Part shown: positions 1,884 to 64,000 of the stretch, piece by piece
Numbering within the stretch: position 1 is the stretch's first letter
Layout of the letters: each line of letters begins with the position of its first letter
From: Candidatus Magasanikbacteria bacterium RIFOXYC2_FULL_42_28
Lineage (GTDB): Bacteria > Patescibacteriota > Patescibacteriia > Magasanikbacterales > GWA2-37-8
Length of the DNA stretch: 64,000 nucleotides
Reading direction: 5' to 3'
Assembly: GCA_001784435.1 (NCBI GenBank)
Contig: MFQZ01000010.1
Coordinates: 169,960 to 233,959, forward strand
Position numbers and translations under genes: made by a program
The notes under the pieces: model-generated
Databases searched by the model: none
What the model was told of the DNA's origin: nothing
What the model saw: only the letters and a program-made list of their open reading frames with translations

Positions 1884-2273
1884 ATGCCCGAAGAAATTAT
1901 CACCACTAACGAAATTATGGATTTTTTGCGCGAAAATATGGTGATGCGCAAAGATTTTGATGGGTTGAAATCCGATTTTGAAATTGTTAAATCCGATGTG
2001 GCCATCTTGAAATCCGATGTGGCCACGCTTAAATCAGATGTGGCCATCTTGAAATCCGATGTCGCTGAATTGAAAGACAGTATTCGTGAAATAAATTCAC
2101 GTCTCGATCATATTGACAGTGAAATTACCGCAATAAAATCACGTTTAGACGCTTTAGAAAAATCAACTTTTGAAGACGCCAATGTTTATGCCAGCGATAT
2201 TTTGTTGTTAAAAAATAAAATGGCGTCATTAGAACAGCAGTTGGCGCGTCTGCAGGCGCAAGTAGCGCGGTAG
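1884..2273 (+). CDS. small coiled-coil protein with tandem heptad repeats (LKSDVAx)x5
   Basis: Translation shows LKSDFEIVKSDVAILKSDVATLKSDVAILKSDVAELK, encoded by 21-bp tandem DNA repeats. C-terminal region also heptad-like. No TM segment. Confidence 0.6.
   Translation: MPEEIITTNEIMDFLRENMVMRKDFDGLKSDFEIVKSDVAILKSDVATLKSDVAILKSDVAELKDSIREINSRLDHIDSEITAIKSRLDALEKSTFEDANVYASDILLLKNKMASLEQQLARLQAQVAR
1966..2090 (+). repeat. about 6 tandem 21-bp direct repeats (ttgaaatccgatgtggccatc-like) inside the CDS
   Basis: Read directly from sequence; in frame, giving heptad protein repeats. Confidence 0.8.
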
Positions 2274-2294
2274 GTAGTTGTATTCTATACCATC

Positions 2295-5200: not shown

Positions 5201-7058
5201 TGATTTTATGGCCGCGGAACGCGCTACGGCAATGGAAGAACATGCCCACGCTGGTAAATTATCCATGCAAGGCGCGGCTTGGGGGTTAAAGGCAATGCAC
5301 GATGTGTTAACGGCGATTGATTTGGGCGAGCAAGGGAAAAAAGCCGGTGAAGAATTTATTAAAACTATCAAAGATAACCATTTAGCTAACTCTTTTAAAG
5401 CCGCGCGCAAAGAAATTGACGCGGTTATCGATAACTGGAAAAAAGCCGGAACCGGACAAATTAAATTTTTGGATGAAGAGGTGCGCCGTTTGAGTGCGCG
5501 CAATGCTTTTGTGGCCGCTTTGAATTATTCTGAAAAAAGCAAGATCACGGCTAAAGATAAAAACATGCGCGAAGCTCAAGCCGCTGATGTGGCTTCTAAC
5601 GCGGTTGTCAATATTCGCAAAGGCCGAGAATTACCGTCCGAAGCGATTGACGCGCTATATGAGGCCGAAGCCAAAGAATTAAGCGGTATGGAACGCGCGG
5701 ACGCGTCGGCCGCGGCCGCGGACACGATGTTTTATTTAATGGCGCAAAAAGAAGCCGGCCATGAATTATCGGCCGATGAAAAATCTTCGATTATGGGCGC
5801 GTGGACTAAGGTAGATTCAGAATCGTGGAATGATGATTTTGCGGATTATTTTATTCGTATGGTGGGTAGACACGAAAGTGGTGACAAGACCCTGACCGGT
5901 CAAAAAAAGGCCATTGCCGAACAGATGGCTAAATTTGCCAAAGATGCTAATTTGAAGTTTGAAAATGAAGTTGTTAATGGTGTAGAAACCGGCAGGAAAA
6001 AATTTGCCGGCGCGTATAATCGCGAAATGTCATCAATGTGGCAGACACTGGCCGCTACCGGTGGCGATACCAAATTATGGAACGCTCATAATGCCATTAA
6101 TCAAGAAGAAAAAGAAATGGGTAGCACCAAGTTTGATAGCAGTGGTGGCTATTGGGGGGCGGCCGAAAGATTGGCCGCGCGGGGTCAACTGGGTGGTTAT
6201 AGTTCAGTGGCTGAAATGGAAGCGGCTTATGGCCAAAATCAAGATGGTCTTAAATTTGCCGCTCGCAAATTTAAAGCCAATGGTATTGGCAATGGGCATT
6301 GGGAGTCGGTATTAAACCAAGAGTTTGATGATAGAAAAGGTATTTATCGGATTAATACCTTAAATACCGCTCAAGGCGGTTCAATTACGGAGATGGGTAA
6401 ACGCACCTTGAACGAATTACTGAAATTTCAGAATCATTCTGCCGGTGATTTTGATTTGACTACCGGGCTGATGCGCTCAATTGATTCTAATTTGTTCGGC
6501 GCGCTTACTGCCCAGATGAAAACTGAAAATGATGTTAAGTTTATGAATTTTCGTTCCATTATTAAATTGTTGGGTGGTCATGAATCTGAAACCGAACTGC
6601 GCACTTCCCGAGGCGGTAAAGATGGTGCTGATACCTATTATCATTTGGGCGGTGAAAAAATGTTGGGCACATTTATCGATAGGTTTGGAGATACCATGGA
6701 AGCGCGAGATAAAATGGATGAGCACCTGTTGGAGAATTTTATGGTTAAGGAGTTGTTGGGGAATAAAAGCGCGACGATGTTACTTTTACAGCGTACAATG
6801 AAATTGAATGATGATGACACAGCGCATGGAAATTTTAGAATTAAATTTGACGGTTCCATTGGTGAAGTTCAAGGTATTGAGGAATTAGTTAAAAAAGTAG
6901 AGGCGTTAAAAGCACAGGGTCGTCTTACTAGTGTTACTCCGGCAATGTTAAAACAGCTTCAAGATATGTTACCAGATTTTAAATCCGGTGTCATTGCCCA
7001 ATCAGGAGATCGTGGTGGCAAGAAAGACAAGAGTGACTCCACTGATTTTGGCGGATAA
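2295..7058 (+). CDS. giant (1587 aa) membrane protein: N-terminal signal/TM plus about 5-6 TM helices (first ~280 aa), then ~1300 aa highly charged Lys/Glu/Ala/Gln-rich predicted coiled coil and a C-terminal globular region; possibly VirB6/TrbL-like
   Basis: Hydrophobic segments visible in the first 280 residues of the translation; long low-complexity KEAQ-rich stretch. The VirB6/TrbL analogy rests on architecture and T4SS-like neighbours only. Confidence 0.45.
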   Translation: MKRNLSQKLKFAFAWLAPRRKWGILSVSALAVLIFAGVILTTTPAAADVLDYVNRAFAWINFAVSRLFLSLALFLLTFVIQIAGYNGYIDSVAVNVGWVMVRDLVNMAFVIFLLVIAFGTILGLEQYEWKKLMVKFVLAAILVNFSRVICGLMIDVAQVFMTTFVNGIAATAGGNLITAFSADKLYKFNPDTNGTEINDTESFIASIAAVMFAGMMMMTMFAIAVMLLARLVVLWVLIVLSPMAFALNVIPKTEKYAQEWWQEFGQNLVAGPILIFFIWLSLVTVGGGDVAKEISANNVVKQDNSQQPKSGISEVMEWENMASFAIAIGMLLVGAKITQQMSPQGGQFVGKAAEFGKKVAMVAAGATTAKWGLKAGKAAGKFALMEIPYGGNFWKAKAKTEWESAKTAMYGKAAGITKESTELNNAAGEKREKAQSLRQLAKTETNDVKKKKYEEAAALAEKEMEDLEARAQEAMAPSRLSKRGKALKAQAAAKKKESEDLRQRAATATTPEAQADLEVQAKVADTEATELRRQQEEETTRGGGGIVGAIVRQRIGYMKQLKKSEGQREIREKLAFKRASGDSGGWIFNRSDGQVKDAYRYEKGMLEVEEMRSSAKDKEYSAIGKSGALGMRRYRDGRFLPGATMAEQIAKHGRGSARMESVSKTIQAATELKIDLAAKAKIDEVDVAKAALDVGLQTTAEKELLAKKAQAEEDAKTAQERIEAEFAPAITAAQVAINDPKAEFNKDVAKAEDDLVDYRKNKKVNDILTTDEQTRQANLDKEAADLQTVIQNSELAMQEAFKKYQEERRGITDADALKTADEKFKTDHGKRQKEVNDKKNELEQLGSRRNKTAAEEKLEKNLEDAKTAREAKGAENGYDTVKKALVDKETEKQEKFEKARTGIVAAQKAIDAYTKKDPTTKKSIQDTDREAEFKADPTTGSKDFATREAEVKARKAALEASLNTVPGAGDFMAAERATAMEEHAHAGKLSMQGAAWGLKAMHDVLTAIDLGEQGKKAGEEFIKTIKDNHLANSFKAARKEIDAVIDNWKKAGTGQIKFLDEEVRRLSARNAFVAALNYSEKSKITAKDKNMREAQAADVASNAVVNIRKGRELPSEAIDALYEAEAKELSGMERADASAAAADTMFYLMAQKEAGHELSADEKSSIMGAWTKVDSESWNDDFADYFIRMVGRHESGDKTLTGQKKAIAEQMAKFAKDANLKFENEVVNGVETGRKKFAGAYNREMSSMWQTLAATGGDTKLWNAHNAINQEEKEMGSTKFDSSGGYWGAAERLAARGQLGGYSSVAEMEAAYGQNQDGLKFAARKFKANGIGNGHWESVLNQEFDDRKGIYRINTLNTAQGGSITEMGKRTLNELLKFQNHSAGDFDLTTGLMRSIDSNLFGALTAQMKTENDVKFMNFRSIIKLLGGHESETELRTSRGGKDGADTYYHLGGEKMLGTFIDRFGDTMEARDKMDEHLLENFMVKELLGNKSATMLLLQRTMKLNDDDTAHGNFRIKFDGSIGEVQGIEELVKKVEALKAQGRLTSVTPAMLKQLQDMLPDFKSGVIAQSGDRGGKKDKSDSTDFGG

Positions 7059-14618: not shown

Positions 14619-15665
14619 TTGTGGTATAATATACCTATGGACAATAATACCAAACAACCAACAATTTTAGTCAAAAAATCCGACGGCACCTTCGCGCGGA
14701 TGTCTTTGGGGGAGATAAAAAAGATGAAAGTGGGTAAAATTACAGCACCGTCGTCTGTCATCCTGAATGAAATGAAGGATCCCTTGAAGTTGGCAGTAAG
14801 GGATTCTTCGGTCGCTACGCTTCCTCAGAATGACAATAACAAAAAAGTCGGAATGACAGGTAAAGACGCCAAGTCGCTTTTAGAAGAAGACAAATTGGTA
14901 GCCCCGGGCACGAGCGTTGCCGTTGGCCGAAATAATCAGGTGGACACGGTAATTAAAAAACTATCATTTTCCGTCGCGTCTAATTTTTTCAATCGTTTGC
15001 GGAGCGCGATTCAGTTGCGTTTAAAAGATGTACGCGGGGAAAAAGAAACACGCGCCACGGTGTTGCGTTCTATAAAAGACGGGGGACTGGGCTTGACTGA
15101 AACCCAAGCCAACGAATTGGAGCAAGTGTGCGCGACGGTGGGTAATTTATTGGCGCGACCACCGGCTAAAAGTAAAACTGATTTAATGGTTGAAGATCAA
15201 ATTTTACCGCAAACGTTTCACAAAATGCCTGTGCCGGCGAAAATGGCTCCACATAACGCGTTTGTGCATGAGGAATTTTTAAAAAAAGAAGAAAAATTTA
15301 AAATTAGTCCAGTGGCTGTTAGCCGACCGGCGATGAAGGATGTGGTTGCCGCCGCCGCGCCGGTCGGGCCGGTGGAGGAAATTAAATTTTTTACCCTAAC
15401 TGATTTTCGGCGTTTGGCCCAAGACCCTAACCAAGCCACCAAACGTTTGGCGCAAAAATTTATTAATTTGCGTGAAGAATCAGTTTTGTTATTTTGGCAG
15501 GCCTTGGATGCCTGGAAGCAAAGCCCGTTATTTGCCGACTATGTTGGTGTATTAAATCGAGTTTTTATCGGTAAAGTCGCGTCTGATCAGCAAAAAACGA
15601 GTGACCAGATAACCGATGTTGAGATAAAGGCGCTTATCGCGATGGAAAAAGATTTGGTAATCTGA
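14619..15665 (+). CDS. hypothetical protein (348 aa); its promoter and 5' end are duplicated upstream of the AbiE cassette
   Basis: ORF only; no motif recognised. Confidence 0.4.
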   Translation: MWYNIPMDNNTKQPTILVKKSDGTFARMSLGEIKKMKVGKITAPSSVILNEMKDPLKLAVRDSSVATLPQNDNNKKVGMTGKDAKSLLEEDKLVAPGTSVAVGRNNQVDTVIKKLSFSVASNFFNRLRSAIQLRLKDVRGEKETRATVLRSIKDGGLGLTETQANELEQVCATVGNLLARPPAKSKTDLMVEDQILPQTFHKMPVPAKMAPHNAFVHEEFLKKEEKFKISPVAVSRPAMKDVVAAAAPVGPVEEIKFFTLTDFRRLAQDPNQATKRLAQKFINLREESVLLFWQALDAWKQSPLFADYVGVLNRVFIGKVASDQQKTSDQITDVEIKALIAMEKDLVI

Positions 15666-19273: not shown

Positions 19274-19309
19274 TTGTCATTCCCGTGAAAATGGGAATCC
19301 AGTCGTCAA
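19274..19309. repeat. TGTCATT-family palindromic element (ttgtcattcccgtgaaaatgggaatccagtcgtcaa)
   Basis: Near-identical copy at 61844-61879: ctgtcattcccgcgaaagcgggaatccagtcgtcaa. It overlaps the likely comFC start codon. Confidence 0.7.
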
Positions 19310-28560: not shown

Positions 28561-28577
28561 TATGATATTGAGGTGAT

Positions 28578-28700
28578 AATGTCAAATTTCCAATTTCCAA
28601 TGTCAAATCAAGCCCAAAATCCAAAACCCAAATTACAAATTGACATTTGAGCTTTGATCTTGATTTGAAATTGGAAATTTGGATTTTGAAATTTTAAGTT
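28578..28700. repeat. MITE-like intergenic element, family A copy 1 (terminal inverted repeats tcaaatttccaatttccaa / ttggaaatttggattttga)
   Basis: Second copy at 32293-32402 sharing about 30 nt at each end. Core atttgagctttga is shared with family B. Confidence 0.7.
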
Positions 28701-28705
28701 TAATT

Positions 28706-30082
28706 ATGAGATTACTCAAGATTTCAGTAATAATATTTATTCTGGCATTAAGCGCTACCGTATTTGCCGGCTATTTTTGGTTGAAAAATACTTCTCCGGA
28801 AAAAATTGTTTTAAACGTTGGTAAAACAATCGGTGTTTCTCTAACCAACGGAACTAATTTAGAAAAAGTGCTGGGATTTGATAAGTCCAAGACCTATTTG
28901 ATTTTGTTTTTAAATAATACGGAATTACGGCCGGGCGGGGGATTTATCGGCGCTTACGCGGTGGTGCGGGCGAATAAAGGGGTGCCGGAAATTTTAAAAA
29001 TTGAAGGGAGCGAGCGCCTGGACAATAGCGCGGCCACTTTTGTTGATAATCCACCGGAGCCGATTAGCCGGCGGTTAAAAGTTAAACATTGGTATTTCCG
29101 CGATAGTAATTGGTCACCGGATTTCGCTCTTTCAGCCGAGCGCGCGCTTCAAATTTATCAAACAGAAAATGGCATAGGCGCGGCGGATATTGACGCGGTG
29201 ATTGGGTTTACCCCGACTGTTATTGAAGAATTATTGGAAATTATCGGTCCAATTACCGCCGAAGGGATGGAATTTAACGCGAAAAATTTTACGGAAAAAT
29301 TAGAATACGAAGTTGAATATGGTTACAAAGATCGCGGTGAACAATTTAATGACCGTAAAAATTTATTAGAAGATGTCGGGCTGGCCATAATCGCCAAAGC
29401 GCGGGAAAATTTATTATGGCGTTTGCAAAAATATATCACACTTGGCAAAAAAATATTGGCCGAAAAACAAGTGGCGATTTACGCGGTTGATAAAACTAAC
29501 CAAGAATTGCTCCGTCAAATTAATTGGACCGGTGAGATGCGTCAGCGGAGTGGTGATTATTTAATGTGGGTGGACGCGAACTTGGCCGCGCTTAAAACTG
29601 ACGCTGCGATTACGCGTTCGCTGGAATATCGGATTATCTCAACTAGTACCGGATATTTGGCCAGCGCGTCAATGAAATATAATCATACGGGAAAATACGA
29701 TTGGCGCACGAGCCGTTATTTGTCATACACACGCGTATTTGTTCCGATCGGAAGTAAATTAGTAAAAGTAACCGGTGCTATCACCAAAGACAGCCAAGGT
29801 GATTTATCAATTGGACAAGGAACAGAAAACGGTCGGCAGTGGTTTGGGGCATATATAAATATCGCGCCCGGCACAACTGATACGCTTACGTTTGAATATT
29901 TATTGCCGGAAACAGTAGTTAAGCAAATTGCGGATAAACAATATAATTTATTAGTCCAAAAACAAATTGGCACGAATGATGTGGGGTTGACGTTGGATTT
30001 ATTTTTTGCTAAAAATACTAATTTAAATACTAATTTAAATAAGTATTTAAATACTGATAAAGAATTTAAGATTAATAATTAA
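28706..30082 (+). CDS. membrane-anchored hypothetical protein (signal-anchor plus large extracytoplasmic domain)
   Basis: Start moved to the ATG at 28706 (MRLLKISVIIFILAL) because the track start lies inside the repeat element. Ends with the TAATG overlap into mreB. Confidence 0.45.
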   Translation: MRLLKISVIIFILALSATVFAGYFWLKNTSPEKIVLNVGKTIGVSLTNGTNLEKVLGFDKSKTYLILFLNNTELRPGGGFIGAYAVVRANKGVPEILKIEGSERLDNSAATFVDNPPEPISRRLKVKHWYFRDSNWSPDFALSAERALQIYQTENGIGAADIDAVIGFTPTVIEELLEIIGPITAEGMEFNAKNFTEKLEYEVEYGYKDRGEQFNDRKNLLEDVGLAIIAKARENLLWRLQKYITLGKKILAEKQVAIYAVDKTNQELLRQINWTGEMRQRSGDYLMWVDANLAALKTDAAITRSLEYRIISTSTGYLASASMKYNHTGKYDWRTSRYLSYTRVFVPIGSKLVKVTGAITKDSQGDLSIGQGTENGRQWFGAYINIAPGTTDTLTFEYLLPETVVKQIADKQYNLLVQKQIGTNDVGLTLDLFFAKNTNLNTNLNKYLNTDKEFKINN

Positions 30083-32263: not shown

Positions 32264-32292
32264 TATTTTTGTTATACTAACTGGTGTAAATA

Positions 32293-32402
32293 ATGTCCAA
32301 TTTCCAATTTCCAATGTCAAATCAATGTCAAAGCTCAAACGTTAAATTTGATATTTGGATTTTGGATTTGATTTGACATTGGTAATTTGGATTTTGACAT
32401 TA
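32293..32402. repeat. MITE-like intergenic element, family A copy 2
   Basis: aatgtccaatttccaatttccaatgtcaaatcaa ... ttggtaatttggattttgacatt; see the 28578 copy. Confidence 0.7.
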
Positions 32403-32446
32403 TCAAAATTATTGATAGCTATTTTGATAATAGCAGACATTACGTT

Positions 32447-33361
32447 ATGTGCAATTTTATTGGTAATACCAAAATTCACCAGTATTTTTCTAAAATTGAT
32501 GGTAATAGTCAACTTGGTCATGCTTATGGATTTGCCGGATTAAATCAGGTGGGCAAACTCACTTTGGCAAAAATTGCCGCCGCGAAATTGTTGGGCGTCA
32601 CAATAGAAAAATTAGCGAGTAGTCCGGATTTTTATTTTGTGGAACGAGCTGTTGATGAAAAAACCGGTAAATTAAAACAAGACATTTCCGTTGAACAAGC
32701 GCGTGATGTCAAAGATATTTTGTTGCGCCGGCCGTGGTTAGGCGGATATCAAGTTGTAATAATTGACGAGATTGAACATTTGAATAAGGCCTCGGCCAAT
32801 TCCTTGTTAAAATTTTTAGAAGAACCGGCCAGTAAGAGTATTATTTTTATTATTACCGAAGACGAAAGTAAATTATTGCCGACCGTGCGTTCGCGGTGCC
32901 AATGGTGGCGGTTTAATCCGGTGGCGGAAGCGGAAATTGCGACTGGATTGCGTGAGCGCGGTATTGACGCGAGTGTCGCGAGCGAAGTTGCGGTTTTGGC
33001 CTCGGGACGGCCGGGGCGCGCTTTGGATTTGGCGCAGAGTCCGGAAAAATTAGCGTTAATTAAAGCCGAAGTGGTTCGTTACGAGAATTTGCGAATTGCG
33101 CCGGTACACGAACGATTTAAAACCATAGAAAGTTTAGCCGGAGAAAAAAAGGGTGCTACGCGTGGTAAAGATGAGTTAGATGAAATTTTACAAATTTGGA
33201 CAACGATAGAGCGAAAAAAAATGTTGCTCGCGATCGGGGCGTCTCAAAACCAATCTGTTAAAGTAATTGACGGTCTGACCAAATTACGCGAGTATTTAGG
33301 GAAGAATATTCATCCGCGTTTAGCGTTAGAAGAATTCTCATTAAATTTACCAATTAATTAA
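32447..33361 (+). CDS. holB: DNA polymerase III delta' subunit
   Basis: AAA+ clamp-loader motifs GHAYGFAGLNQVGK and TVRSRCQ. Start taken at the ATG 32447, because the track start lies inside the repeat element. Confidence 0.7.
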   Translation: MCNFIGNTKIHQYFSKIDGNSQLGHAYGFAGLNQVGKLTLAKIAAAKLLGVTIEKLASSPDFYFVERAVDEKTGKLKQDISVEQARDVKDILLRRPWLGGYQVVIIDEIEHLNKASANSLLKFLEEPASKSIIFIITEDESKLLPTVRSRCQWWRFNPVAEAEIATGLRERGIDASVASEVAVLASGRPGRALDLAQSPEKLALIKAEVVRYENLRIAPVHERFKTIESLAGEKKGATRGKDELDEILQIWTTIERKKMLLAIGASQNQSVKVIDGLTKLREYLGKNIHPRLALEEFSLNLPIN

Positions 33362-33365
33362 ATAT

Positions 33366-33480
33366 TAAATTCTAAACTCTAAATTCTAAACAAATCCAAA
33401 AATTAAAATTCAAATACTAAAATTTGAGCTTTGAAAAATTTGAACTTGTTTAGAGTTTAGAAATTAGAGTTTAGAATTTT
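33366..33480. repeat. MITE-like intergenic element, family B copy 1 (TIRs aaattctaaactctaaattctaaacaa / ttgtttagagtttagaaattagagtttagaattt)
   Basis: Second copy at 58118-58236. Central atttgagctttga core is shared with family A. Confidence 0.7.
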
Positions 33481-33494
33481 TATAAAATAATTCT

Positions 33495-34568
33495 ATGCGT
33501 AAAATATTCTATCTATTACCACTCGTAGTTTTAATTCTCACCGGCGCCGGTTGTCTTTCGTTTGGCAGTAGCACCGCCGGACCGATGGGCGTGTTTACGT
33601 CCGCTGATAAAGGTGAGACCTGGGCCGAGTCCAATGTCTATCCGACGGTGAAAGGCGTCCAAAGTGTCGCTGGCGCTAGAATATTCCGTTTACATACCGA
33701 CCCGTCCGATCCCAACGCAATTTATATGGCCACGCGCGGGCAAGGATTGTTTTATTCTTATAATAACGGTGGCTCTTGGCAGACATTTTCCGCTTTGGCC
33801 GGTAAATTTATTTATGGTTTTACGGTCGCGCCTCAAGATAAATGCGTGATGTACGCGAGCGATGGCCAACATATTTATAAAACCGATGATTGTGGCCGGA
33901 AATGGAATTTGTCTTACACCGAAGAACGCCCGAGCGAACATGTTACCGCGCTCGCGGTTGATTATGGTAATATCAATATAGTTTACGGTACCTTGATTGG
34001 CGGTGATTTTATGTTAAGTGAAGATGGCGGTCGCAGTTGGAAGGTGACAGCTCGTTTTGGTTTTGAAACGCAATATATGGTGGCTGATCAATTTCGCCCC
34101 AAGCGCGTGTATGTGGCCACGCAACGCAATGGCCTGCAACGTTCTGATGACGGTGGGCGCACTTTTCAAGATTTAAGCGAAGGCCTTGATAATTTTAGTG
34201 ATAGTTCTAACTTTTATCGTTTAGCGTTAAATCCAAAGACCCCGGGTGGTTTGTTTTGGATTTCTAAATATGGCATTTTAGAGTCCAATGACGCGGGCGT
34301 AACCTGGAGCGAGTTGAAATTGTTGACTCCGCCGGGCGGGGTGAATATTTACGCTTTCGCGATTAACCCCGGGAATTTAAATGAGATTTATTATACCGGC
34401 ACGATTTTGGGGCAAAAAAATGAGCATGTTCGTTCCACGTTTTATAAAACCACGGACGGCGGTAAAAGTTGGGTGACCAAAAAGTTGCCCACTAATTCTA
34501 TCCCCGTGTCGTTATTAATCAGCCCCAATAATGATAAACGGTTGTTCCTTGGGTTTACTAGCTTGTAA
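33495..34568 (+). CDS. lipoprotein with BNR/Asp-box repeat beta-propeller
   Basis: Signal peptide with lipobox (LTGAGC). Seven S-x-D-x-G-x-(T/S)-W repeats (SADKGETW, SYNNGGSW, TDDCGRKW, SEDGGRSW, SDDGGRTF, SNDAGVTW, TTDGGKSW). Confidence 0.65.
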   Translation: MRKIFYLLPLVVLILTGAGCLSFGSSTAGPMGVFTSADKGETWAESNVYPTVKGVQSVAGARIFRLHTDPSDPNAIYMATRGQGLFYSYNNGGSWQTFSALAGKFIYGFTVAPQDKCVMYASDGQHIYKTDDCGRKWNLSYTEERPSEHVTALAVDYGNINIVYGTLIGGDFMLSEDGGRSWKVTARFGFETQYMVADQFRPKRVYVATQRNGLQRSDDGGRTFQDLSEGLDNFSDSSNFYRLALNPKTPGGLFWISKYGILESNDAGVTWSELKLLTPPGGVNIYAFAINPGNLNEIYYTGTILGQKNEHVRSTFYKTTDGGKSWVTKKLPTNSIPVSLLISPNNDKRLFLGFTSL

Positions 34569-34572
34569 TTTT

Positions 34573-34614
34573 TTGTCATTGCGAGGACCCGCCTCGGGCG
34601 GGGACGCGGCAATC
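34573..34614. repeat. TGTCATT-family GC-rich palindromic element (ttgtcattgcgaggacccgcctcgggcggggacgcggcaatc)
   Basis: Shares the TGTCATT(G/C)CGAGG head with the secA-internal element at 60966, and the cccgcctcgggcggg hairpin with 22570 and 31140. Confidence 0.6.
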
Positions 34615-34647
34615 TCTTCAATTATTAAAAAATAAAATAAACACAAT

Positions 34648-42543: not shown

Positions 42544-44092
42544 GCCAAAACCCCACTTTTTTATTTTTATTGTATTGGGCTCGCTTTTGTTATTTAGTAT
42601 TTTTGTGATATTTTTTTTCAGTGTTAAACCTGAAAATGGTGGTATTTTTTTGACGGGGCTGGATGGGGTTAATAAAATTTTTGGTAATGAAGAGTGGTAT
42701 TGCGATGCGTTTGGATATGAAGCCGGCGGACTCATAAAACTCGCGGAGCCGGGTAGAAAATGGATTTTGATTGGTAACGAATTTCCCGAAGAAAACAAAA
42801 TGATAAATTTAAAAGTACAACTTGCCCAAAGAGCTAGAAAATATTTTGAGCAACCAAACTCGGTAAAAATATTTTATGAATTAACAAATGCTAGCAGTGA
42901 ACAGGTAACGAGTAGTATCCTTGGCGCTTACTTTTCCACTAGCTCTTTAAAAAATTCCGACGAACTTCTTTTTGAGGAAAAAATAAATCTGAGTGGACTC
43001 GCGGTTGGTAAATATAAAATTAAGGTAAAAGTTGAGTTTGACTGTGGTGAGGCGACGACATTACCCCAAGATATTTTTGTGTCCCACCCCCTGTATGTTG
43101 TTTGGAGTTTTGATTGGGAGGGTTATAATGTAAAAGACAAATATTTACAGAGTATCGACGAGCTTGCTTCCAAGCATGATAATTTTCCCCTTACCCATTT
43201 AATAAATCCTAGGTTATTTATTACGAAAACTATTCCTCAAGCCAATAGAGATCGCGTCCGAGATTGGTTGGTGGAGAAAAAAAATAAGCGCGGGGATAGT
43301 CTGGGGTTGCACCTGCATCTGTTTTATGAAAATTTTGAAGCCGCTGGTTTAGATATTCCCGAAAAAGACAGCGCTGAACTTGAAAAAATCTTTTTTACTA
43401 CCAATGGGTCTATGGTTACGAGTACTGCCAGCACTACCGTTGCGTTTGATAAAAGTAAATTAAAAAAGAAACAAATTTATGACTTAACCTACTGGGGCTA
43501 TGGTCGTGATGATGGTTATGATATACCGATAACTAACCTTAGTGATGCTGAATTTGATAAAATACTAAAATGGTCCAAAGCCACCTTTGGCGTTCTTGGT
43601 TTTGGTACGCCCGTCACCTATCGTTCCGGGGGTTGGTTTGCCAATCTTGCCACCCTGCAGGTTTTAGAAGAAAATGGTTTCGTAGTAGATTCTTCCGGTC
43701 GAACAAAATATAATTTTGGCGATAGTAAACTCCCCGGATTTTGGGATTTAGCAACTACTTCGCAACCTTATCAACCAAATATCCATAACCAAAACTCGGC
43801 TTTGAAGCCAACTATGAAAATATGGGAATTCCCCAACAACGGAGCGGATTCGTGGTGGTATAGCGCCAAAGAAATGATTGAGCGCTTTAATTTAAATTGG
43901 GGGGCAGTGGGGGGTCCGCTTGAAAAAAGCACGGTGGTAGTTTTTTTAAGTCATCCGGATTGGTTTGAAGTAGACATACCAAAAGTTGACGAGCTTTTCA
44001 ATTACACCGATACGTATTTAAATTCCAAAGACGGGGGACCGGTAATATATCAAAATTTAGAAAATTTACATAAAATTTGGGAAGCTAATTAA
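42509..44092 (+). CDS. membrane-anchored extracytoplasmic protein, possibly carbohydrate-esterase-like
   Basis: N-terminal TM anchor. DWEGYN and LHLHLFY segments are faintly reminiscent of polysaccharide deacetylase motifs; weak. Confidence 0.3.
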   Translation: MANWLRFWKKDKPKPHFFIFIVLGSLLLFSIFVIFFFSVKPENGGIFLTGLDGVNKIFGNEEWYCDAFGYEAGGLIKLAEPGRKWILIGNEFPEENKMINLKVQLAQRARKYFEQPNSVKIFYELTNASSEQVTSSILGAYFSTSSLKNSDELLFEEKINLSGLAVGKYKIKVKVEFDCGEATTLPQDIFVSHPLYVVWSFDWEGYNVKDKYLQSIDELASKHDNFPLTHLINPRLFITKTIPQANRDRVRDWLVEKKNKRGDSLGLHLHLFYENFEAAGLDIPEKDSAELEKIFFTTNGSMVTSTASTTVAFDKSKLKKKQIYDLTYWGYGRDDGYDIPITNLSDAEFDKILKWSKATFGVLGFGTPVTYRSGGWFANLATLQVLEENGFVVDSSGRTKYNFGDSKLPGFWDLATTSQPYQPNIHNQNSALKPTMKIWEFPNNGADSWWYSAKEMIERFNLNWGAVGGPLEKSTVVVFLSHPDWFEVDIPKVDELFNYTDTYLNSKDGGPVIYQNLENLHKIWEAN

Positions 44093-56886: not shown

Positions 56887-58110
56887 ATGTTATTTCAAGA
56901 TTTGATGGAAGAAACATTTTTTTCCGTGACCGCGAATAAATCGCGATCGGCTTTGACAATTCTCGGGATTGTAATTGGTATTAGCTCGGTGATTGCGATG
57001 ATTTCGGTGGGGCAGGGTGCGAGTCAAGATATCGCCAGTAGAATTTCCGCGTTGGGCACAAATTTATTAGTGGTGACGCCGGGCAATGCTCGTCAAAGTG
57101 GAGGAAATTTAGTGCGCAGTGGTAGTGGTTCGGCTACTAGTTTGACTTTGGAAGATGCCATTGCGGTCAAAAGCGTGTCCGGTGCTAAAATTGTCGCGCC
57201 CACTATTTCGGCGCGCAAACAAGTGACTGCGAAAGGTAAAAATACCAACACCAGTATCAACGGCATCGATGATCAATATTTTATTGTAAAAAATATTAAT
57301 TTAGCGCAAGGAATTGGAATTACGAGTGGGCAGGTGACAGCACGTTCCAAAGTGGCGGTGCTCGGGCCGACGACGCGCGATGATTTGTTCGGTGTGGACG
57401 CGAGCGTGGTTGGATTAAAAATTCGCATTGGCAGTCAAGAATATTCAGTGGTGGGTGTTACCGAAGCCAAAGGCGGGACGGGTTTTGGGAGTTCGGATGA
57501 TTTGATTTATATTCCGATTAGCACGGCGGCCCAATATTTAACCGGTTCACAATCAGTCAGCAATATTAACATTGAAGCTACGACCGCCGAGGAGATGACA
57601 ATGGTGCAGGCGGAAGTGATGGCGCTTTTGATGGCACGGCATCGGATTTCCGATCCACTATTAGCGGATTTTTCAATTTTAAATCAAGAAGATTTATTGT
57701 CTTCGGCATCATCGGTGGCCGGCACGATGACAATGTTACTCGGCGCGATCGCGGGAATTTCTTTGTTGGTTGGCGGTATTGGTATTATGAATATGATGTT
57801 AACAACCGTCACGGAACGCACCCGCGAAATTGGTTTGCGTAAATCACTGGGCGCGAAAAATCATGACATCAGCGCGCAATTTTTAGCCGAGGCCGTGGCG
57901 TTTACTTTTACCGGCGGGATTATTGGAATAATTTTAGGGTGGCTCGCGTCTTTGGCAATTCACCAGTTTTCCGGTTTAACCACAGTAGTAAATTGGGCGT
58001 CAGTTTCTTTATCGTTTGGAATCGCCGCCGTAGTTGGTTTGGTGTTTGGATATTATCCGGCCAAGCGCGCGGCGAAATTGGATCCGATTGAGGCGCTAAG
58101 ATATCAATAA
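56887..58110 (+). CDS. ABC transporter permease with FtsX-like domain (MacB-type)
   Basis: N-terminal TM, large periplasmic domain, C-terminal 3-TM FtsX-like region. Confidence 0.7.
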   Translation: MLFQDLMEETFFSVTANKSRSALTILGIVIGISSVIAMISVGQGASQDIASRISALGTNLLVVTPGNARQSGGNLVRSGSGSATSLTLEDAIAVKSVSGAKIVAPTISARKQVTAKGKNTNTSINGIDDQYFIVKNINLAQGIGITSGQVTARSKVAVLGPTTRDDLFGVDASVVGLKIRIGSQEYSVVGVTEAKGGTGFGSSDDLIYIPISTAAQYLTGSQSVSNINIEATTAEEMTMVQAEVMALLMARHRISDPLLADFSILNQEDLLSSASSVAGTMTMLLGAIAGISLLVGGIGIMNMMLTTVTERTREIGLRKSLGAKNHDISAQFLAEAVAFTFTGGIIGIILGWLASLAIHQFSGLTTVVNWASVSLSFGIAAVVGLVFGYYPAKRAAKLDPIEALRYQ

Positions 58111-58117
58111 GTTAAAA

Positions 58118-58236
58118 CTATAAATACTAAACTCTAAATTCTAAACAAATTCAAATTATTCAAATCCAAAATTTAAACATTTGAATTTTATGTTTTGAAC
58201 TTGTTTAGAGTTTAGTATTTCGTGTTTAGTATTTAA
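58118..58236. repeat. MITE-like intergenic element, family B copy 2
   Basis: aaactctaaattctaaacaaat ... gaacttgtttagagtttag matches the 33366 copy. Confidence 0.7.
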
Positions 58237-58246
58237 AATTAAGTAT

Positions 58247-58810
58247 ATGTCCAAACTATTAACAATATTTTCTGTCGGTGCAATTTTGGTTTTTACTTCC
58301 GGCTGTGGCAATACAAAACAACCAGACAACAACACTGCGCCAACTGATTTTACCGCGCGTCGAAATGTTTCTACCACACCGTTTGGCGCGGATTTTCCTA
58401 TTGGCACGACCACTGATTTGGCAATTGGTAAAAAAGTTATGGTGGTGGGTTCGGCTGGGTCAGATGGAATTGTCAGCGCCGCGCAAATTGTGGTTGGTGA
58501 ATTTAATTTTGGTATGGGTTTTGACGGTGCTCGATTCGCGACCGACACACCGACCGGACAACAAAGGCAGCGTCCAAATTTTAACGGCCAAGGTGGTGGC
58601 GGCCAAGGTGGTGGAAATTTCGCCGGACGAGCAGGCGACAGTAGGGGAATGACGCGAGTAGTTGGCGAAATTATCAAAATGGACAATACCAGTTTGGTGG
58701 TAAAAACCAATGATGGTGGCTCAAAAATCGTTTTTTATTCAGCAAATGTCAAGATTTTGCTGCCACCCATCGCGATTACGCCTGTGAAAACTGCCAGCAC
58801 TACGCCATAA
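58247..58810 (+). CDS. Gly-rich lipoprotein, function unknown
   Basis: Signal peptide with lipobox FTSGC; GQGGGGQGGGNFAGRAGD low-complexity stretch. Confidence 0.45.
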   Translation: MSKLLTIFSVGAILVFTSGCGNTKQPDNNTAPTDFTARRNVSTTPFGADFPIGTTTDLAIGKKVMVVGSAGSDGIVSAAQIVVGEFNFGMGFDGARFATDTPTGQQRQRPNFNGQGGGGQGGGNFAGRAGDSRGMTRVVGEIIKMDNTSLVVKTNDGGSKIVFYSANVKILLPPIAITPVKTASTTP

Positions 58811-58906: not shown

Positions 58907-61783
58907 ATGAGTTTTTTAACCAAAATTTTCGGTGATCCGAACGCCAAGGTAATCAAGGAAATTCAGCCGATTGTAGATAAAATTAATAGTTTAGAAAGCG
59001 ATTTAAAGGCGTTAAGCGATGAAGCGCTCAAAGCCAAGACCGCCGAATTTAAAGACCGCCTCTCAAAAGGCGAAACTTTGAATGATATTTTACCAGAATC
59101 GTTTGCGGTTGTGCGCGAAGCATCTCGGCGCGCGACCGGTATGCGTCATTTTGATGTTCAACTTATTGGTGGTGTCGCTTTGCATCGCGGACAAATTTCG
59201 GAAATGCGCACGGGTGAAGGTAAAACGCTTGTGGCCACGTTACCGATATATTTAAATGCTTTGGCTGGCAAAGGTGTCCATCTCGTTACTGTCAATGATT
59301 ACTTGGCCAAACGTGATGCCGTGTGGATGGGCAAAATTTATGATTTCTTGGGAATGAGTGTGGGGATTATTCAACAGCTTGGTGCTTCATTTAAATATAG
59401 AAGTGCGCTCGCGAACGCTCCCACCTCACCCTCGCCCTCTCCTCGGGCAGGAGAGGGGGCGACAGACGCGGACGCGACTGTAATTGGTAAAATTAAAGTT
59501 GGGGATGAAGAGGTTGAACAGTGCACGCGTCGCGAGGCCTATGCTTGCGACATTACTTATGGCACGAACAACGAATTTGGGTTTGATTATTTGCGCGATA
59601 ATATGGCGCCGTCACTTTCGGAAATGGTGCAAAGGCCATTTTATTACGCTATTGTTGATGAGGTTGACTCCATTTTAGTTGATGAGGCGCGCACGCCTTT
59701 GATTATTTCCGCTCCGGCCGAAGAGGCGGCGGATTTGTATTATAAATTCGCGGATTTGGTAAAGCGTTTAAAAGAAAATGAGGACTTTAATATTGATGAA
59801 AAAATGCGCTCAAGCACTTTAACGGACGCGGGTTTGAAAAAAATGGAGGACTGGCTTGGGATTGGCAATATTTATGCCGAGGGCGGGATGACGATGGTGC
59901 ACCATGTGGAGCAGGCCTTGCGCGCGCACGCGTTGTTTAAACGTGATCGTGATTACGTGGTTGATAACGGAGAAGTGGTGATTGTGGATGAATTTACCGG
60001 ACGTAAAATGCCCGGTCGACGTTATAGCGAAGGTTTGCACCAAGCGATTGAAGCGCAAGAAGGCGTAAAAATTCAGCGCGAGAGTCGAACTTTGGCAACG
60101 GTCACATTTCAAAATTATTTCCGTTTGTATGAAAAATTATCCGGTATGACCGGCACGGCGGTAACCGAGGCGGAAGAATTTGGCAAAATTTATAATTTAG
60201 AAGTGGTCGTTATTCCGACCAACCACCCTAATAAACGCGCGGATCGGCCGGATCGAATTTATCGCACCGAAGAAGCAAAATGGCAGGCGATCGCGAAAGA
60301 AGTTAAAGAATTGCAAACCAAAGGCCAGCCGGTTTTGATCGGCACGATTTCGGTGGAAAAAAATGAGGCGTTGAGCTTGTATTTGGATCGCGAAGGAATC
60401 AAGCATGAAATTTTAAACGCCAAAAATCACGAACGAGAAGGTGAAATTATCGCGCAAGCCGGTCGGCCGGGTGCGGTAACTTTGGCTACCAATATGGCGG
60501 GACGTGGCGTGGATATTATTTTAGGTGGTAATCCACCGGAAGTTGAAGCGCGTGATAAAGTTTTGAATGCCGATGGTTTGTTTGTAATTGGTACCGAGCG
60601 CCACGAATCGCGTCGTATTGATAATCAGTTGCGTGGTCGTGCCGGTCGCCAAGGAGATCCGGGCGCTACTCAATTTTATTTATCCACCGATGATGATTTG
60701 ATGCGAATTTTTGCGGGTGACAGAATCAAATCAGTCATGCAAACTTTGAAAGTGCCGGATGATATGCCGATTGAAAACAAAGGCATTACGAGAATTATTG
60801 AATCCGCCCAACGCAAAGTGGAAGGATTTCATTTTGATACGCGCAAGCATTTGTTGGAATACGACGATGTGTTGAACCGTCATCGTGAAGTTGTTTATGG
60901 CAAACGCCGAAATGTCTTGGATATTTTTGAGCAAGAAAAAAATGCGCTGTTTGGCGCGTCGTCAACTGTCATTCCGAGCGAGGCTCGCGCCGACGAGGAA
61001 TCTCCATTACAACGGGATGGAGATTTCTCACCCACTGCGACGGGGATTCGAAATGACAGTGATGTGATGGTTCCTCGCAATGACAACAAAACTCTGCGCG
61101 ATATTATTTTTGAAATGTTAGAGCAAGAAATCGAACAGGTAGTTTCCTTTCATACCAACGCCGAAGAACGACGCGAATGGAATATGGCAGAAATTAAAGA
61201 AACTGTGGTGACAATTTTCCCGTTGAACAGTGCGGAGCAAGAGCAATTATTGCACATGAGCAACGGTGGGACAGAAAAATTACAAGCCGTAGAAGCGCGG
61301 ACAAAAATTATTGAATATTTATTTGAACTGGCCAAGAAAAAATACGATGAGATGCTGGTGTCAGTCGTGCCGGATAAAGCAATGTTAATTGAAATTGAAA
61401 AGCAGGTGTTATTGCGTTCCATTGATAATTTGTGGGTTGAGCATTTGGTCGCGGTAGATTATTTGCGTACCGGCATTGGTCTGCGCGGTTATGGCCAGCG
61501 TGACCCACTTGTGGAATACAAAAAAGAAACTTATCGGATGTTTAATGAATTGTTAAGTTTGATTCAGAAAGAGGTTGTTTACACGATTTACAAAGTGAGC
61601 GCCGGCATTGCTTTGGCACCATCGGTGATGGCTAAAGGAAATATGATTTTAAGTGGGGCAGGCAAAGAAATGGCGGTTACTAAAACTGCCACTAAAGACG
61701 CCGAAGGCCACAAAATCGGGCGCAACGACCCATGTTATTGCGGGAGTGGTAAGAAATTTAAACGTTGTCATGGCGCTGAATAA
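58907..61783 (+). CDS. secA: preprotein translocase ATPase SecA (with two GC-rich in-frame inserts and C-terminal zinc-finger tail)
   Basis: Canonical SecA motifs (e.g. TNNEFGFDYLRDNM, GRQGDPG), CYCGSGKKFKRCHG tail. Confidence 0.9.
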   Translation: MSFLTKIFGDPNAKVIKEIQPIVDKINSLESDLKALSDEALKAKTAEFKDRLSKGETLNDILPESFAVVREASRRATGMRHFDVQLIGGVALHRGQISEMRTGEGKTLVATLPIYLNALAGKGVHLVTVNDYLAKRDAVWMGKIYDFLGMSVGIIQQLGASFKYRSALANAPTSPSPSPRAGEGATDADATVIGKIKVGDEEVEQCTRREAYACDITYGTNNEFGFDYLRDNMAPSLSEMVQRPFYYAIVDEVDSILVDEARTPLIISAPAEEAADLYYKFADLVKRLKENEDFNIDEKMRSSTLTDAGLKKMEDWLGIGNIYAEGGMTMVHHVEQALRAHALFKRDRDYVVDNGEVVIVDEFTGRKMPGRRYSEGLHQAIEAQEGVKIQRESRTLATVTFQNYFRLYEKLSGMTGTAVTEAEEFGKIYNLEVVVIPTNHPNKRADRPDRIYRTEEAKWQAIAKEVKELQTKGQPVLIGTISVEKNEALSLYLDREGIKHEILNAKNHEREGEIIAQAGRPGAVTLATNMAGRGVDIILGGNPPEVEARDKVLNADGLFVIGTERHESRRIDNQLRGRAGRQGDPGATQFYLSTDDDLMRIFAGDRIKSVMQTLKVPDDMPIENKGITRIIESAQRKVEGFHFDTRKHLLEYDDVLNRHREVVYGKRRNVLDIFEQEKNALFGASSTVIPSEARADEESPLQRDGDFSPTATGIRNDSDVMVPRNDNKTLRDIIFEMLEQEIEQVVSFHTNAEERREWNMAEIKETVVTIFPLNSAEQEQLLHMSNGGTEKLQAVEARTKIIEYLFELAKKKYDEMLVSVVPDKAMLIEIEKQVLLRSIDNLWVEHLVAVDYLRTGIGLRGYGQRDPLVEYKKETYRMFNELLSLIQKEVVYTIYKVSAGIALAPSVMAKGNMILSGAGKEMAVTKTATKDAEGHKIGRNDPCYCGSGKKFKRCHGAE
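59405..59478 (+). repeat. GC-rich palindromic insert inside secA (hairpin ccctctcctcgggcaggagaggg at 59435-59457), in frame, encoding ALANAPTSPSPSPRAGEGATDADAT
   Basis: Sharp GC jump versus surroundings. It expands a loop that has about 12 aa in E. coli SecA (between VGI and REAYAxDITYGT). Confidence 0.55.
60966..61059 (+). repeat. TGTCATT-family element inside secA, in frame (ctgtcattccgagcgagg ... cgaaatgacag inverted termini)
   Basis: Termini ctgtcattccg / cgaaatgacag are inverted repeats. The head matches the elements at 34573, 19274 and 61844; it encodes about 31 aa of a SecA loop. Confidence 0.6.
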
Positions 61784-61843
61784 CCCCCTTGCCAAAAAAA
61801 TGGTTTTAAGGTAAGATATTCACACTTTTACTTTTAACACTAT

Positions 61844-61918
61844 CTGTCATTCCCGCGAAAGCGGGAATCCAGTCGTCAAATTTAAAATTCTGGATCCCCG
61901 TTTTCACGGGGATGACAA
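61844..61918. repeat. two inverted copies of the TGTCATT-family element between secA and secD (ctgtcattcccgcgaaagcgggaatccagtcgtcaa ... ctggatccccgttttcacggggatgacaa)
   Basis: Read directly. Each copy contains a GNRA-type hairpin (cccgcGAAAgcggg); together they form a long hairpin. Confidence 0.7.
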
Positions 61919-61929
61919 TTAAATTAATT

Positions 61930-64000
61930 ATGGCCAATAAATATCATCAAGCCGTTGCAAAAAATTTAACTCGTTCTACCATTAGATGGCGTGTGGCCGG
62001 CGTGGCGATTTTGTTAGTCGCGTCGCTAACGGTCGTGTTGCCTAATTATGCCAATTCCGGAATCAATTGGATTAATTCCAAGACCAATATCGGCTTGCCA
62101 CAGTTGCCGGCCGGCGGTTTTAATTTAGGTTTGGATTTACAGGGTGGCGCGCATTTAATTTATGAGGCCAAAACCGACAATATCGCGGCGGCCGACCGCG
62201 CTGATTCCGTTGAGGGTGTGCGTGATGTGATTGAACGTCGTGTTCGTGGTGGTTTGGGTGTGGCCGAGCCGCTCGTCCAGACAACGCGCGTGGGTGAGAC
62301 CTATCGCGTGATTGTGGAGTTGCCGGGTGTTAAGGATGTTAATCAGGCGATCCAAATGATTGGCGGTACGCCGGTGTTGGAATTTAAAGAAGAAAATAAC
62401 GAGCCACCGCGCCCCTTGACCGCGACAGAACAAAAAGAATTAAAGGATTTTAATACCGCGGCGAAAAAGAAAGCGAACGAAGCATTGGTCGCGGCCAAAA
62501 CCGATTTTGCCGGAGCGGTAACAAAATATACCGAAGATGACCGCAGTAAAAATAACGGCGGGGATATCGGTTTTATTGACAGTCGAACCTTTCCTGAGAT
62601 TTTTGCTTGGGCCAAAACCGTTAAAGACGGTGAAATTGGCAAAAATTTAGTTGAAAGCGCCGAAGGTTATAGTGTCGTTAAACGCGTGGCTGAAAAAGAC
62701 GGCGAACGCTATGTCTCGGCTTCGCATATTTTAATTTGTTTCCTTGGCGCCGAGCGCTGTGATAATCCGCAATATACACGTGATCAAGCGACTGCTAAAA
62801 TTGCCGAATTAAAAACCAAAGCCACTCCACAGAATTTCGCGCAACTGGCGCGGGAAAATTCCACGGAACCGGGCGCGGCTGACCGCGAAGGGGACTTGGG
62901 TAAATTTAAAAAGGGCGAAATGGTGCCGGCTTTTGAAGCGGTGGCGTTTGACCTGCCCGTGGGGACAATTTCCGAACCGGTGGAGACCCAATTTGGTTTT
63001 CATTTAATTTATAAAACAAATGATGAAACGGAAAAGCAATATCAAGTAAGCAGAATTTTGGCGCGCACTAAAACTGAAATTGATATTGTGCCACCGGTAT
63101 CGCAGTGGAAGCCAACTGGTTTGTCCGGTAAGCAACTCGCGCGCGCGGAAGTTACTGAAGATTATCAGACCGGCCAAGTGCAAGTCAGTTTAAATTTTGA
63201 TGATGAAGGCGTTAAATTATTTTCGGAAATTACTACACGTAATGTTGGCAAGCCAGTGGCCATTCTGTTAGATGGTGAAGAAATCAGTGTGCCGACAGTT
63301 AATGAGCCGATTTTATCCGGCAGTGCCGTTATTTCCGGCGGGTTTACTTTAATGGAAGCGAAATTATTGGCGCAACGGCTTAATTCCGGCGCTCTGCCGG
63401 TGCCGGTTGAACTCGTAAGTCAACAGAGTGTGGGTGCGACGCTGGGATTTGATTCTTTAAATAAAAGTTTTAAAGCCGGTTTAATTGGTTTGGCAGTGGT
63501 TATATTATTCATGATTTTGTACTACCGCTTGTCGGGTATTCTCGCGGCTTTGAGTTTGGCGGTTTATGCGGCTTTGAGTTTGGCTATCTTTAAATTAGTC
63601 GGCGTTACCCTAACTCTTTCCGGTATCGCCGGTTTCGTTCTATCAATTGGTATGGCGGTGGACGCCAATGTGCTGGTATTTGAACGTCTTAAAGAAGAGT
63701 TGCGTTTGGGCAAAAGTTTGAAATCGGCCATGGAAGAGGCGTTTGTGCGCGCCTGGACATCAATTCGGGACAGCAACATCACCGGCCTTATCAGTTGTGT
63801 GTTTATGGTTTGGATGGGCGTGGGTTTTGTGCAGGGCTTTGCCGTTACTTTGGCTATTGGTATCCTGGTATCAATGTTTTCCGCCGTTATTATTACTCGC
63901 ACTTTGGCGCGTTGGATTTTTAGTTGGTTTAAAGAAGATGGCAATTGGTTATTTTTGGGACATCTTAAAAAAGACGCGTCTGCCAAGTCGGTCACCAATA
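61930..64000 (+). CDS. secD: SecD (or fused SecDF) with two parvulin-type PPIase domains inserted in the periplasmic head; 3'-truncated by window edge
   Basis: SecD P1 motifs (LGLDLQGG, VIVELPGV), then two PpiC-like domains (SKNNGGDIGFI...; REGDLGKFKKGEMVPAFEAVAFDLPVGTISEPVETQFGFHLI), then SecD TM bundle (LAAFVLSIGMAVDANVLVFERLKEE). Confidence 0.75.
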   Translation, partial: MANKYHQAVAKNLTRSTIRWRVAGVAILLVASLTVVLPNYANSGINWINSKTNIGLPQLPAGGFNLGLDLQGGAHLIYEAKTDNIAAADRADSVEGVRDVIERRVRGGLGVAEPLVQTTRVGETYRVIVELPGVKDVNQAIQMIGGTPVLEFKEENNEPPRPLTATEQKELKDFNTAAKKKANEALVAAKTDFAGAVTKYTEDDRSKNNGGDIGFIDSRTFPEIFAWAKTVKDGEIGKNLVESAEGYSVVKRVAEKDGERYVSASHILICFLGAERCDNPQYTRDQATAKIAELKTKATPQNFAQLARENSTEPGAADREGDLGKFKKGEMVPAFEAVAFDLPVGTISEPVETQFGFHLIYKTNDETEKQYQVSRILARTKTEIDIVPPVSQWKPTGLSGKQLARAEVTEDYQTGQVQVSLNFDDEGVKLFSEITTRNVGKPVAILLDGEEISVPTVNEPILSGSAVISGGFTLMEAKLLAQRLNSGALPVPVELVSQQSVGATLGFDSLNKSFKAGLIGLAVVILFMILYYRLSGILAALSLAVYAALSLAIFKLVGVTLTLSGIAGFVLSIGMAVDANVLVFERLKEELRLGKSLKSAMEEAFVRAWTSIRDSNITGLISCVFMVWMGVGFVQGFAVTLAIGILVSMFSAVIITRTLARWIFSWFKEDGNWLFLGHLKKDASAKSVTN

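Follow-up and report, generated by a model that had tools for sequence, protein, structure and literature searches.

The closest described relatives of the element considered here are the hairpin repeats reported by Chenal et al. (Nat Commun 2025; PMC11893778), a study reached by a full-text literature search with GTCATTCCCGCG. As set out in its main text, the Neisseria Transformation Sequence (NTS) is CGTCATTCCCGCGMAVGCGGGAATCYRG and contains dRS3 (ATTCCC-N8-GGGAAT), and a degenerate 'Ssn-related motif' (SRM) was defined by the same authors. The Ssn family was described as single-domain GIY-YIG proteins of ~94 aa (cd10448). Four proteobacterial Ssn homologues were found to bind the hairpin only as single-stranded DNA; binding and cleavage of the SRM were confined to single-stranded DNA of the forward strand, and the cut site lay just upstream of the hairpin head (PMC11893778). 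An IS-like nature of the Ssn system, or transposition by Ssn, was raised there as a hypothesis only. NTS inside genes were reported to be rare, at 2% in N. meningitidis. The genome set consisted of RefSeq reference genomes and the main text makes no mention of CPR; it describes the arrangement NTS-ssnA-NTS, but not a short outward-headed doublet as the commonest unit (PMC11893778).

The stretch of DNA analysed here (the window; 64,000 nt from a metagenome-assembled Magasanikbacteria genome) carries in its secA-secD spacer a 73-bp element (61845-61917) that is, with a probability of roughly 80%, an SRM doublet, a ssn-less miniature of an SRM-ssn-SRM cassette inserted in the secD leader. It is made of two inverted 28-nt arms. 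The left arm, TGTCATTCCCGCGAAAGCGGGAATCCAG (61845-61872, plus strand), is an NTS-type SRM hairpin with the stem ATTCCCGC/GCGGGAAT and the loop GAAA. An AT-rich spacer of 17 nt, TCGTCAAATTTAAAATT (61873-61889, no strand assigned), separates it from the right arm, which reads TGTCATCCCCGTGAAAACGGGGATCCAG on the minus strand (61890-61917). The TGTCAT heads of both arms point outward. Each arm folds into an 8-bp stem free of mismatches, closed by a loop of 4 nt. The four positions at which the right arm differs from the left correspond to two base pairs with compensated changes, one from T-A to C-G and one from C-G to T-A, so that each arm has kept its own hairpin. The two arms are 86% complementary to one another, which bears out the proposal, made in a sequence-only reading of this DNA, that the pair forms one long composite hairpin. 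The copies listed in that reading are all present, their coordinates being off by 1-3 bases, and its view that they belong to a true repeat family, in which head and tail are conserved around an internal hairpin, was confirmed. As DNA the doublet folds with -21.1 kcal/mol (z = -5.7), and the RNA of the whole secA-secD intergenic region with -53.4 kcal/mol (z = -7.9 against shuffled controls).

A search of the window with the SRM pattern HGTCWYN(0-2)YYVSBRHN(0-5)WNVSBRGN(0-2)RNCYNB gave three matches, compared with 0.08 expected from 100 dinucleotide shuffles. Two of them are the arms of the secD doublet, on the plus and minus strands respectively, and the third lies at 43337-43370 (minus strand); a single arm at 19275 and the long-loop copies described below do not match the pattern. 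Beyond the pattern, the doublet has the form of an SRM in being a hairpin-forming inverted repeat of 20-50 nt that is oriented by a non-palindromic conserved head. Under the narrower NTS search of Chenal et al., which takes CGTCATTCCCGCGMAVGCGGGAATCYRG with at most one mismatch (PMC11893778), the left arm qualifies with a single mismatch (T for C at position 1), and the right arm and the 19275 copy fall outside with five and four mismatches. The family is therefore of a kind already known, the NTS/SRM hairpins associated with Ssn described in 2025 (PMC11893778), and probably not one of the REP, RPE or ERIC families with which a comparison had been suggested, the comparison with the RPEs being one of behaviour. 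Since the element is an ordinary member of that repeat family, no new category is opened by it. Four points are added to what has been published: the host is a CPR bacterium, the doublet predominates as a unit, essential CPR proteins carry in-frame insertions, and there is an overlap with WsnRNA46. The shorter motif TGTCATTSC occurs seven times in the window against 0.99 expected, the match at 6989 not being established as a copy, and the density of NTS-type arms is low, at three in 72 kb (the window plus 7.8 kb beyond it).

The dRS3 sequence is present in the left arm (61849-61868) and in the 19275 copy; the right arm, with ATCCCC-N8-GGGGAT, lies outside the dRS3 definition. The secD doublet, with a short segment between two repeat arms, is built like the Neisseria intergenic mosaic elements (NIMEs), in which the enclosed segment is variable. 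The host phylum is different, however, and neither filamentous-phage integration nor an IS110-type recombinase was seen here.

The doublet lies between secA (58907-61783, plus strand; 958 aa, ~35-40 aa longer than most relatives) and a secD gene of the SecD/SecF type (plus strand), which runs off the window at 64000. By the homologues of this SecA the window belongs to Candidatus Magasanikbacteria, within the CPR/Patescibacteria. The gene caller placed the start of secD at 61912, the ATG of the right arm's terminal ATGACA, so that the predicted start would fall inside the repeat. Alignment with the SecD N-termini of two related loci (L126 and L127) points instead to ATG 61930 as the likely true start, 12 nt beyond the end of the doublet. 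Upstream of the doublet is a promoter-like motif, TTGCCA-17-TAAGAT (61789-61817, plus strand), recognised by its match to the consensus and by its conservation. It is found upstream of secD in the window and in the related Magasanikbacteria loci L126 (6722-6755), L127 (about 6303-6335) and L152 (about 3565-3595), whatever gene precedes, the variants in the four Magasanikbacteria-like genomes being TTGCCA/TGGACA-17-TAAGAT/TAATAT/TAAAAT. In L127 the secA-secD spacer is 79 bp long and in L126 secD is preceded by a nudix gene. The usable secD loci were reached via the proteins P0009, P0011 and P0036; P0005, P0006 and P0007 were uninformative for the comparison of spacers because their secA is not followed by secD. 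All three relatives retain the promoter-like motif upstream of secD but lack both arms (3/3), and for this reason the doublet is read as an insertion between that motif and the secD start rather than as a conserved regulatory structure. A MAFFT alignment of the spacers showed no single clean gap, whereas a pairwise alignment with cheap gap extension opened the gap cleanly. As the doublet is downstream of the promoter-like motif and before the start at 61930, it would belong to the presumed secD leader and not to the end of secA.

To survey how the motif is distributed, the 28-mer class TGTCATYCCCGYGAAARYGGGRATCCAG was searched for by exact matching, with each species represented by one genome; at least 120 genome stretches, belonging to more than 15 phyla, contain it. 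Copies restricted to a few sites had been named in the sequence-only reading as the outcome that would speak against a family, and the scan found the opposite. Among the matches listed are at least 14 CPR loci, two of them from Magasanikbacteria, and the SRM family thus extends to CPR/Patescibacteria with its 28-nt motif essentially unchanged. The motif was also seen in 18 viral-contig stretches (L132-L151, IMG/VR), and on two viral contigs Ssn-like proteins are flanked by a GC-rich SRM variant. The SRM pattern gave 209 matches in the loci among the matches listed; where two of these were adjacent and no more than 200 bp apart the heads pointed outward in 45 of 57 pairs, the remaining orientations accounting for 7, 3 and 2 pairs. 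The outward-headed doublet is the commonest unit of the family. Its layout is TGTCAT...CCAG, a spacer of 5-83 nt, and CTGG...ATGACA, and the 17-nt spacer in the window is typical. Neither a target-site duplication nor a conserved flanking motif was found in 49 doublets, the duplication being 0 nt in 34. The hairpin itself is under constraint. Across 38 distinct copies, chosen by head and tail only and hand-pruned of obvious chance matches, 98% of cells were paired and five of the eight pairs had changed on both sides, a value reached in none of 500 shuffles; pairing in the unpruned set was 87-98%. The GTCA of the head is invariant. In its 28-nt succession of head, hairpin and tail, and in the preservation of the hairpin by compensatory changes, the element at secD resembles the published NTS/SRM repeats (PMC11893778).

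The same arms flank ssn in other genomes, as they do in the published system. The cassette gene ssn encodes a single-domain GIY-YIG nuclease of ~95 aa. A GIY-YIG ORF (PF01541) was found within 8 kb in only two of the at least 120 motif-bearing stretches, and both of these genes lie exactly between outward-headed left and right arms. Five further ssn loci were obtained by protein look-ups and from viral contigs; four were bracketed and one had the right arm only. In all, ssn is bracketed by outward-headed arms in six of seven loci (L081, L105, L155, L157, L150 and L151), with L153 having the right arm only. Because the same arms bracket ssn in 6/7 of the loci examined, the doublet is best read as a ssn-less miniature of the cassette, related to it as a miniature derivative is to an insertion sequence, and the 17-nt spacer would then be the position held by the ssn gene in full cassettes. 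Among 23 N-terminally extended Ssn gene calls most begin with peptides encoded by the left-arm SRM, e.g. SFPRKRES, VIPAQAGIQ and CHSRESGNP. Ssn-like GIY-YIG proteins were found in Kiritimatiellia, Omnitrophica, Chloroflexi, Deltaproteobacteria and other groups. The proteins (P0121-P0240) are 75-97% identical across phyla and most are encoded on contigs of less than 2 kb, which fits a horizontally moving, multi-copy repeat that breaks assemblies.

Unlike the published NTS/SRM-Ssn systems, the copies in the window have no ssn nearby. Pfam searches of ten small or unassigned ORFs of the window found no ssn and no transposase near the copies, and a six-frame search of the window with phmmer at E <= 10 found no ssn homologue. 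An HMM built from 120 Ssn proteins gave no match in the window or in L121 and none in the CPR loci, which amount to about 100 kb, nor was a homologue found in the 7.8 kb beyond the window; a nearby cd10448 GIY-YIG gene, as expected of an SRM, was thus absent from the window plus 7.8 kb. Its absence does not exclude membership of the SRM family, because most copies in any genome are dispersed. A progenitor cassette specific to this lineage was sought by scanning metagenomes for the common tail ...CCAGTCGTCAA, which returned three matches, from unrelated hosts and with no ssn.

Other readings of the composite hairpin have to be set against this evidence. It might be a functional RNA signal, acting either on secA as terminator or attenuator, or in the secD leader as an element for RNA processing or stability. 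Its fold is very stable, with -42.2 kcal/mol for the 73 nt as RNA, its position between the promoter-like motif and the secD ATG would suit such a role, a double-strand-specific RNase could in principle act on a stem of 28 bp, and a homologous doublet in Wolbachia has been annotated as an expressed small RNA. However, the minus strand folds equally well (-40.9 kcal/mol), and this lack of strand asymmetry gives no pointer to selection on the transcribed strand. The sequence after 61917, ATTAAATTAATTATG, has no T-run and the doublet is not among the results of the consensus terminator scan, so an intrinsic (Rho-independent) terminator was rejected. The idea of a terminator or attenuator, put forward in the sequence-only reading, is weakened further by the position of the doublet downstream, and not upstream, of the conserved promoter-like motif and by the three relatives that have the same secD upstream region without it. 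The same sequence is also found in more than 15 phyla, where its contexts are unrelated and include coding regions. An RNA signal is for these reasons considered unlikely, and the doublet at secD is most likely a passenger, for which incidental effects on mRNA stability, processing or translation are possible and which may influence secD expression.

The Wolbachia annotation leads to a related suggestion, namely that the doublet is a small-RNA gene of the WsnRNA46 type (Wolbachia sRNA 46). Rfam at its gathering threshold found nothing at the secD doublet, but at a permissive E-value threshold RF02625 (WsnRNA46) matched over its whole model at 61829-61937 on the minus strand (42.9 bits, E = 3.4e-8), a match that is not random and yet below the gathering threshold of 65.3 bits. 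Other weak Rfam matches at this threshold were taken as chance. The RF02625 consensus follows the same plan (GTCAT head, hairpin, CCAG, spacer, CTGG, hairpin, ATGAC) and is itself an SRM doublet, so that the match reflects common heads, tails and doublet form; its arms are of the long-loop type, unlike those at secD. Expression and a cross-kingdom role have been reported for Wolbachia only. WsnRNA46 is moreover one of the sRNA annotations with the highest copy numbers in bacterial genomes, as would be expected of a repeat and not of a single-copy sRNA gene. A WsnRNA46-type gene at secD is thus highly improbable, and what the Rfam model describes, an outward-headed SRM doublet, may be a DNA repeat in dispersed copies and not a dedicated gene for an sRNA. 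Resemblance to a REPIN, a pair of REP sequences mobilised by a RAYT (an IS200/IS605-type Y1 tyrosine transposase), is one of architecture: both have two inverted hairpin repeats with a short spacer as the replicating unit, are dispersed mostly between genes, lack target-site duplications and are associated with a single-copy nuclease gene flanked by the repeats. The genes between the arms encode GIY-YIG proteins (PF01541), however, and not a Y1 transposase, no transposase was seen among the small ORFs near the copies, and the motif is the published Ssn-associated one. In addition, the SRM motif and Ssn hardly change from one phylum to the next, whereas the literature describes REPIN-RAYT pairs as lineage-specific, with vertical inheritance. 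That the secD doublet is a REPIN can be given almost no credence.

With the doublet read as a ssn-less miniature, a route to its present position can be proposed. An SRM-ssn-SRM cassette, present in many phyla, would have given rise to a gene-less doublet, and Ssn, or the mobility machinery of the cassette, would spread such doublets. The Magasanikbacteria genome would then have, or once have had, a ssn gene, and a doublet would have been inserted into the secD leader without target duplication. The fuller proposal, that SRM doublets are non-autonomous miniature transposons derived from SRM-ssn-SRM, mobilised by the GIY-YIG single-strand nuclease itself, moving horizontally between more than 15 phyla and giving rise to in-frame insertions in CPR, is tentative and is held at somewhat under even odds. 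Mobilisation driven by Ssn is an inference. On any one strand only a single arm of the doublet is in the cleavable orientation, which has no simple counterpart in the IS200/IS605 mechanism. The outward-headed doublet unit does support the published hypothesis that the Ssn system is, or once was, a mobile element. Were the proposal true, doublets mobilised by GIY-YIG would be a transposon class not yet demonstrated; gene-dense CPR genomes would be subject to recurrent in-frame peptide insertions in essential proteins (two hot spots in SecA, LeuRS and Tgt), and the doublets would be the CPR counterpart of the Rickettsia palindromic elements.

Other copies in the window vary in form. A degenerate single NTS-type arm, TGTCATTCCCGTGAAAATGGGAATCCAGTCGTCAA (19275-19309, plus strand), has three mismatches to the left arm at secD and the TCGTCAA tail in common with it. 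It overlaps the start of comFC, as had been noted from the sequence; the start codon of the ORF is ATG 19249, and the element itself contains an alternative ATG at 19293. The arm is a decayed member of the family at the comFC start, and it encodes VIPVKMGIQSS. Elsewhere the 5' ends of ssn genes are read through to give peptides like it, VIPMKMGIQ and VIPVQMGIH. A single long-loop arm (34574-34616, plus strand) is found between a BNR-repeat gene and frr. Its loop is the hairpin cccgcctcgggcggg, with a nested GC hairpin at 34588-34602, and nested-hairpin arms of this design flank ssn in L105 and L155. The hairpin at 34585, one of three that had been considered related to the family, is this loop. 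The other two, placed at 22570 and 31140, are present at 22569 and 31138 with two and one mismatches respectively, but were rejected as members since they are plain GC stem-loops without a TGTCAT head or GGAATC tail.

Two long-loop doublets lie in frame inside genes of the window. One, which had escaped the sequence-only reading, is at 14756-14835 (plus strand) in the ORF 14619-15665, with arms at 14756-14783 (plus) and 14800-14835 (minus); beside it is a partial extra head, TGTCATTCCGAC, on the minus strand (14847-14858). The other is in secA (60967-61058, plus strand; fold z = -4.1). An intragenic copy had been recognised here at 60966 and does exist, though not as a single element: it is a doublet with arms at 60967-61004 (plus) and 61020-61058 (minus), adjoined by a partial third arm, TGTCATTGCGAGGA, on the minus strand (61072-61085). 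The arms encode ...VIPSEARADEESPLQRDGDFSPTATGIRND..., and the in-frame reading of the doublet plus the partial arm is ...VIPSEARADEESPLQRDGDFSPTATGIRNDSDVMVPRNDN.... Long-loop arms of the GTCATTSYGAG type occur elsewhere too as outward-headed doublets, alongside NTS-type arms, and there are hybrid doublets with one arm of each type, e.g. in L107 at 2075. Because both types form the same outward-headed doublets and hybrids exist, it is defensible, with lower confidence, to place the long-loop 'GAG' arms and the short-loop arms in one superfamily; membership of the long-loop arms would rest on the common head and tail, the doublet form and the hybrids. In the same part of secA the terminal ATGACA of one repeat arm resembles a -35 hexamer and makes, with a downstream TATTAT, the best promoter-like match of the region (61080-61107, 10/12). 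Given this resemblance the outward-facing ends of arms could create promoters, and they could also create start codons, as at 61912 and 19293.

The in-frame position of several window copies sets them apart from the NTS of N. meningitidis, and similar insertions are found in other CPR proteins. In an alignment of 20 SecA sequences the 40-odd extra residues of the window SecA are missing from its closest natural homologues (P0004, P0005 and P0007), and other Magasanikbacteria-like SecAs have independent insertions at the same two variable regions, around alignment columns 170-225 and 730-790. In the secA of L152 each of these hot spots holds an NTS-type doublet of 75 bp, or 25 codons (1045-1119 and 2647-2721); the two are nearly identical, and both are in frame and encode VIPAESGNPDNS.G.WIPNQVGNDN. 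The right arm of this pair is identical to the arm that adjoins ssn in L155 (Dehalococcoidales). The occurrence of one doublet at two SecA sites is counted as evidence that the doublet may be mobile as a unit. A leucyl-tRNA synthetase in L047 (Parcubacteria GW2011_GWB1_42_6) has three in-frame insertions of hairpin elements (about 2185-3070), a tRNA-guanine transglycosylase in L006 has one doublet in frame (6950-7038) and a membrane protein in L037 also carries an in-frame insertion. Such doublets may account for part of the insertions in CPR proteins that have had no explanation. A census of SRM inserts by peptide signature in 120 SecA homologues was too noisy, since the pattern is also matched by VIPTN, a motif native to SecA. 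Two SecA entries (P0002 and P0003) look like mosaics, with long stretches identical to the window SecA and divergence elsewhere, and were left out of the natural homologues. The first variable region of the window SecA contains, in frame, a GC-rich hairpin of another kind, CCCTCTCC-TCGGGC-AGGAGAGGG (59435-59457), which encodes ...SPSPSPRAGEGA...; other SecA homologues have other inserts there.

Palindromic repeats of Rickettsia, the work on which is attributed to Ogata et al. (2000, 2002), are reportedly tolerated in frame inside essential protein genes, and the copies described here are like them in this respect, the comparison being one of behaviour and not of consensus sequence. Two Rickettsia loci (L016 and L111) contain doublets of 119-138 bp with the same arms as the secD doublet. 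A literature search found no paper on in-frame palindromic insertions in CPR and none linking RPEs to GIY-YIG proteins.

The window also contains a second and unrelated family of palindromes, which are AT-rich, intergenic and ~115-140 bp long (28561-28710, 32264-32410, 33355-33495 and 58108-58247). Short periodic units, e.g. AAATTTCCAATTTCCAATGTCAAATC or AAATTCTAAACTCTAAATTCTAAAC, make up these palindromes, of which there are two subtypes, and every copy takes up the whole of an intergenic gap.
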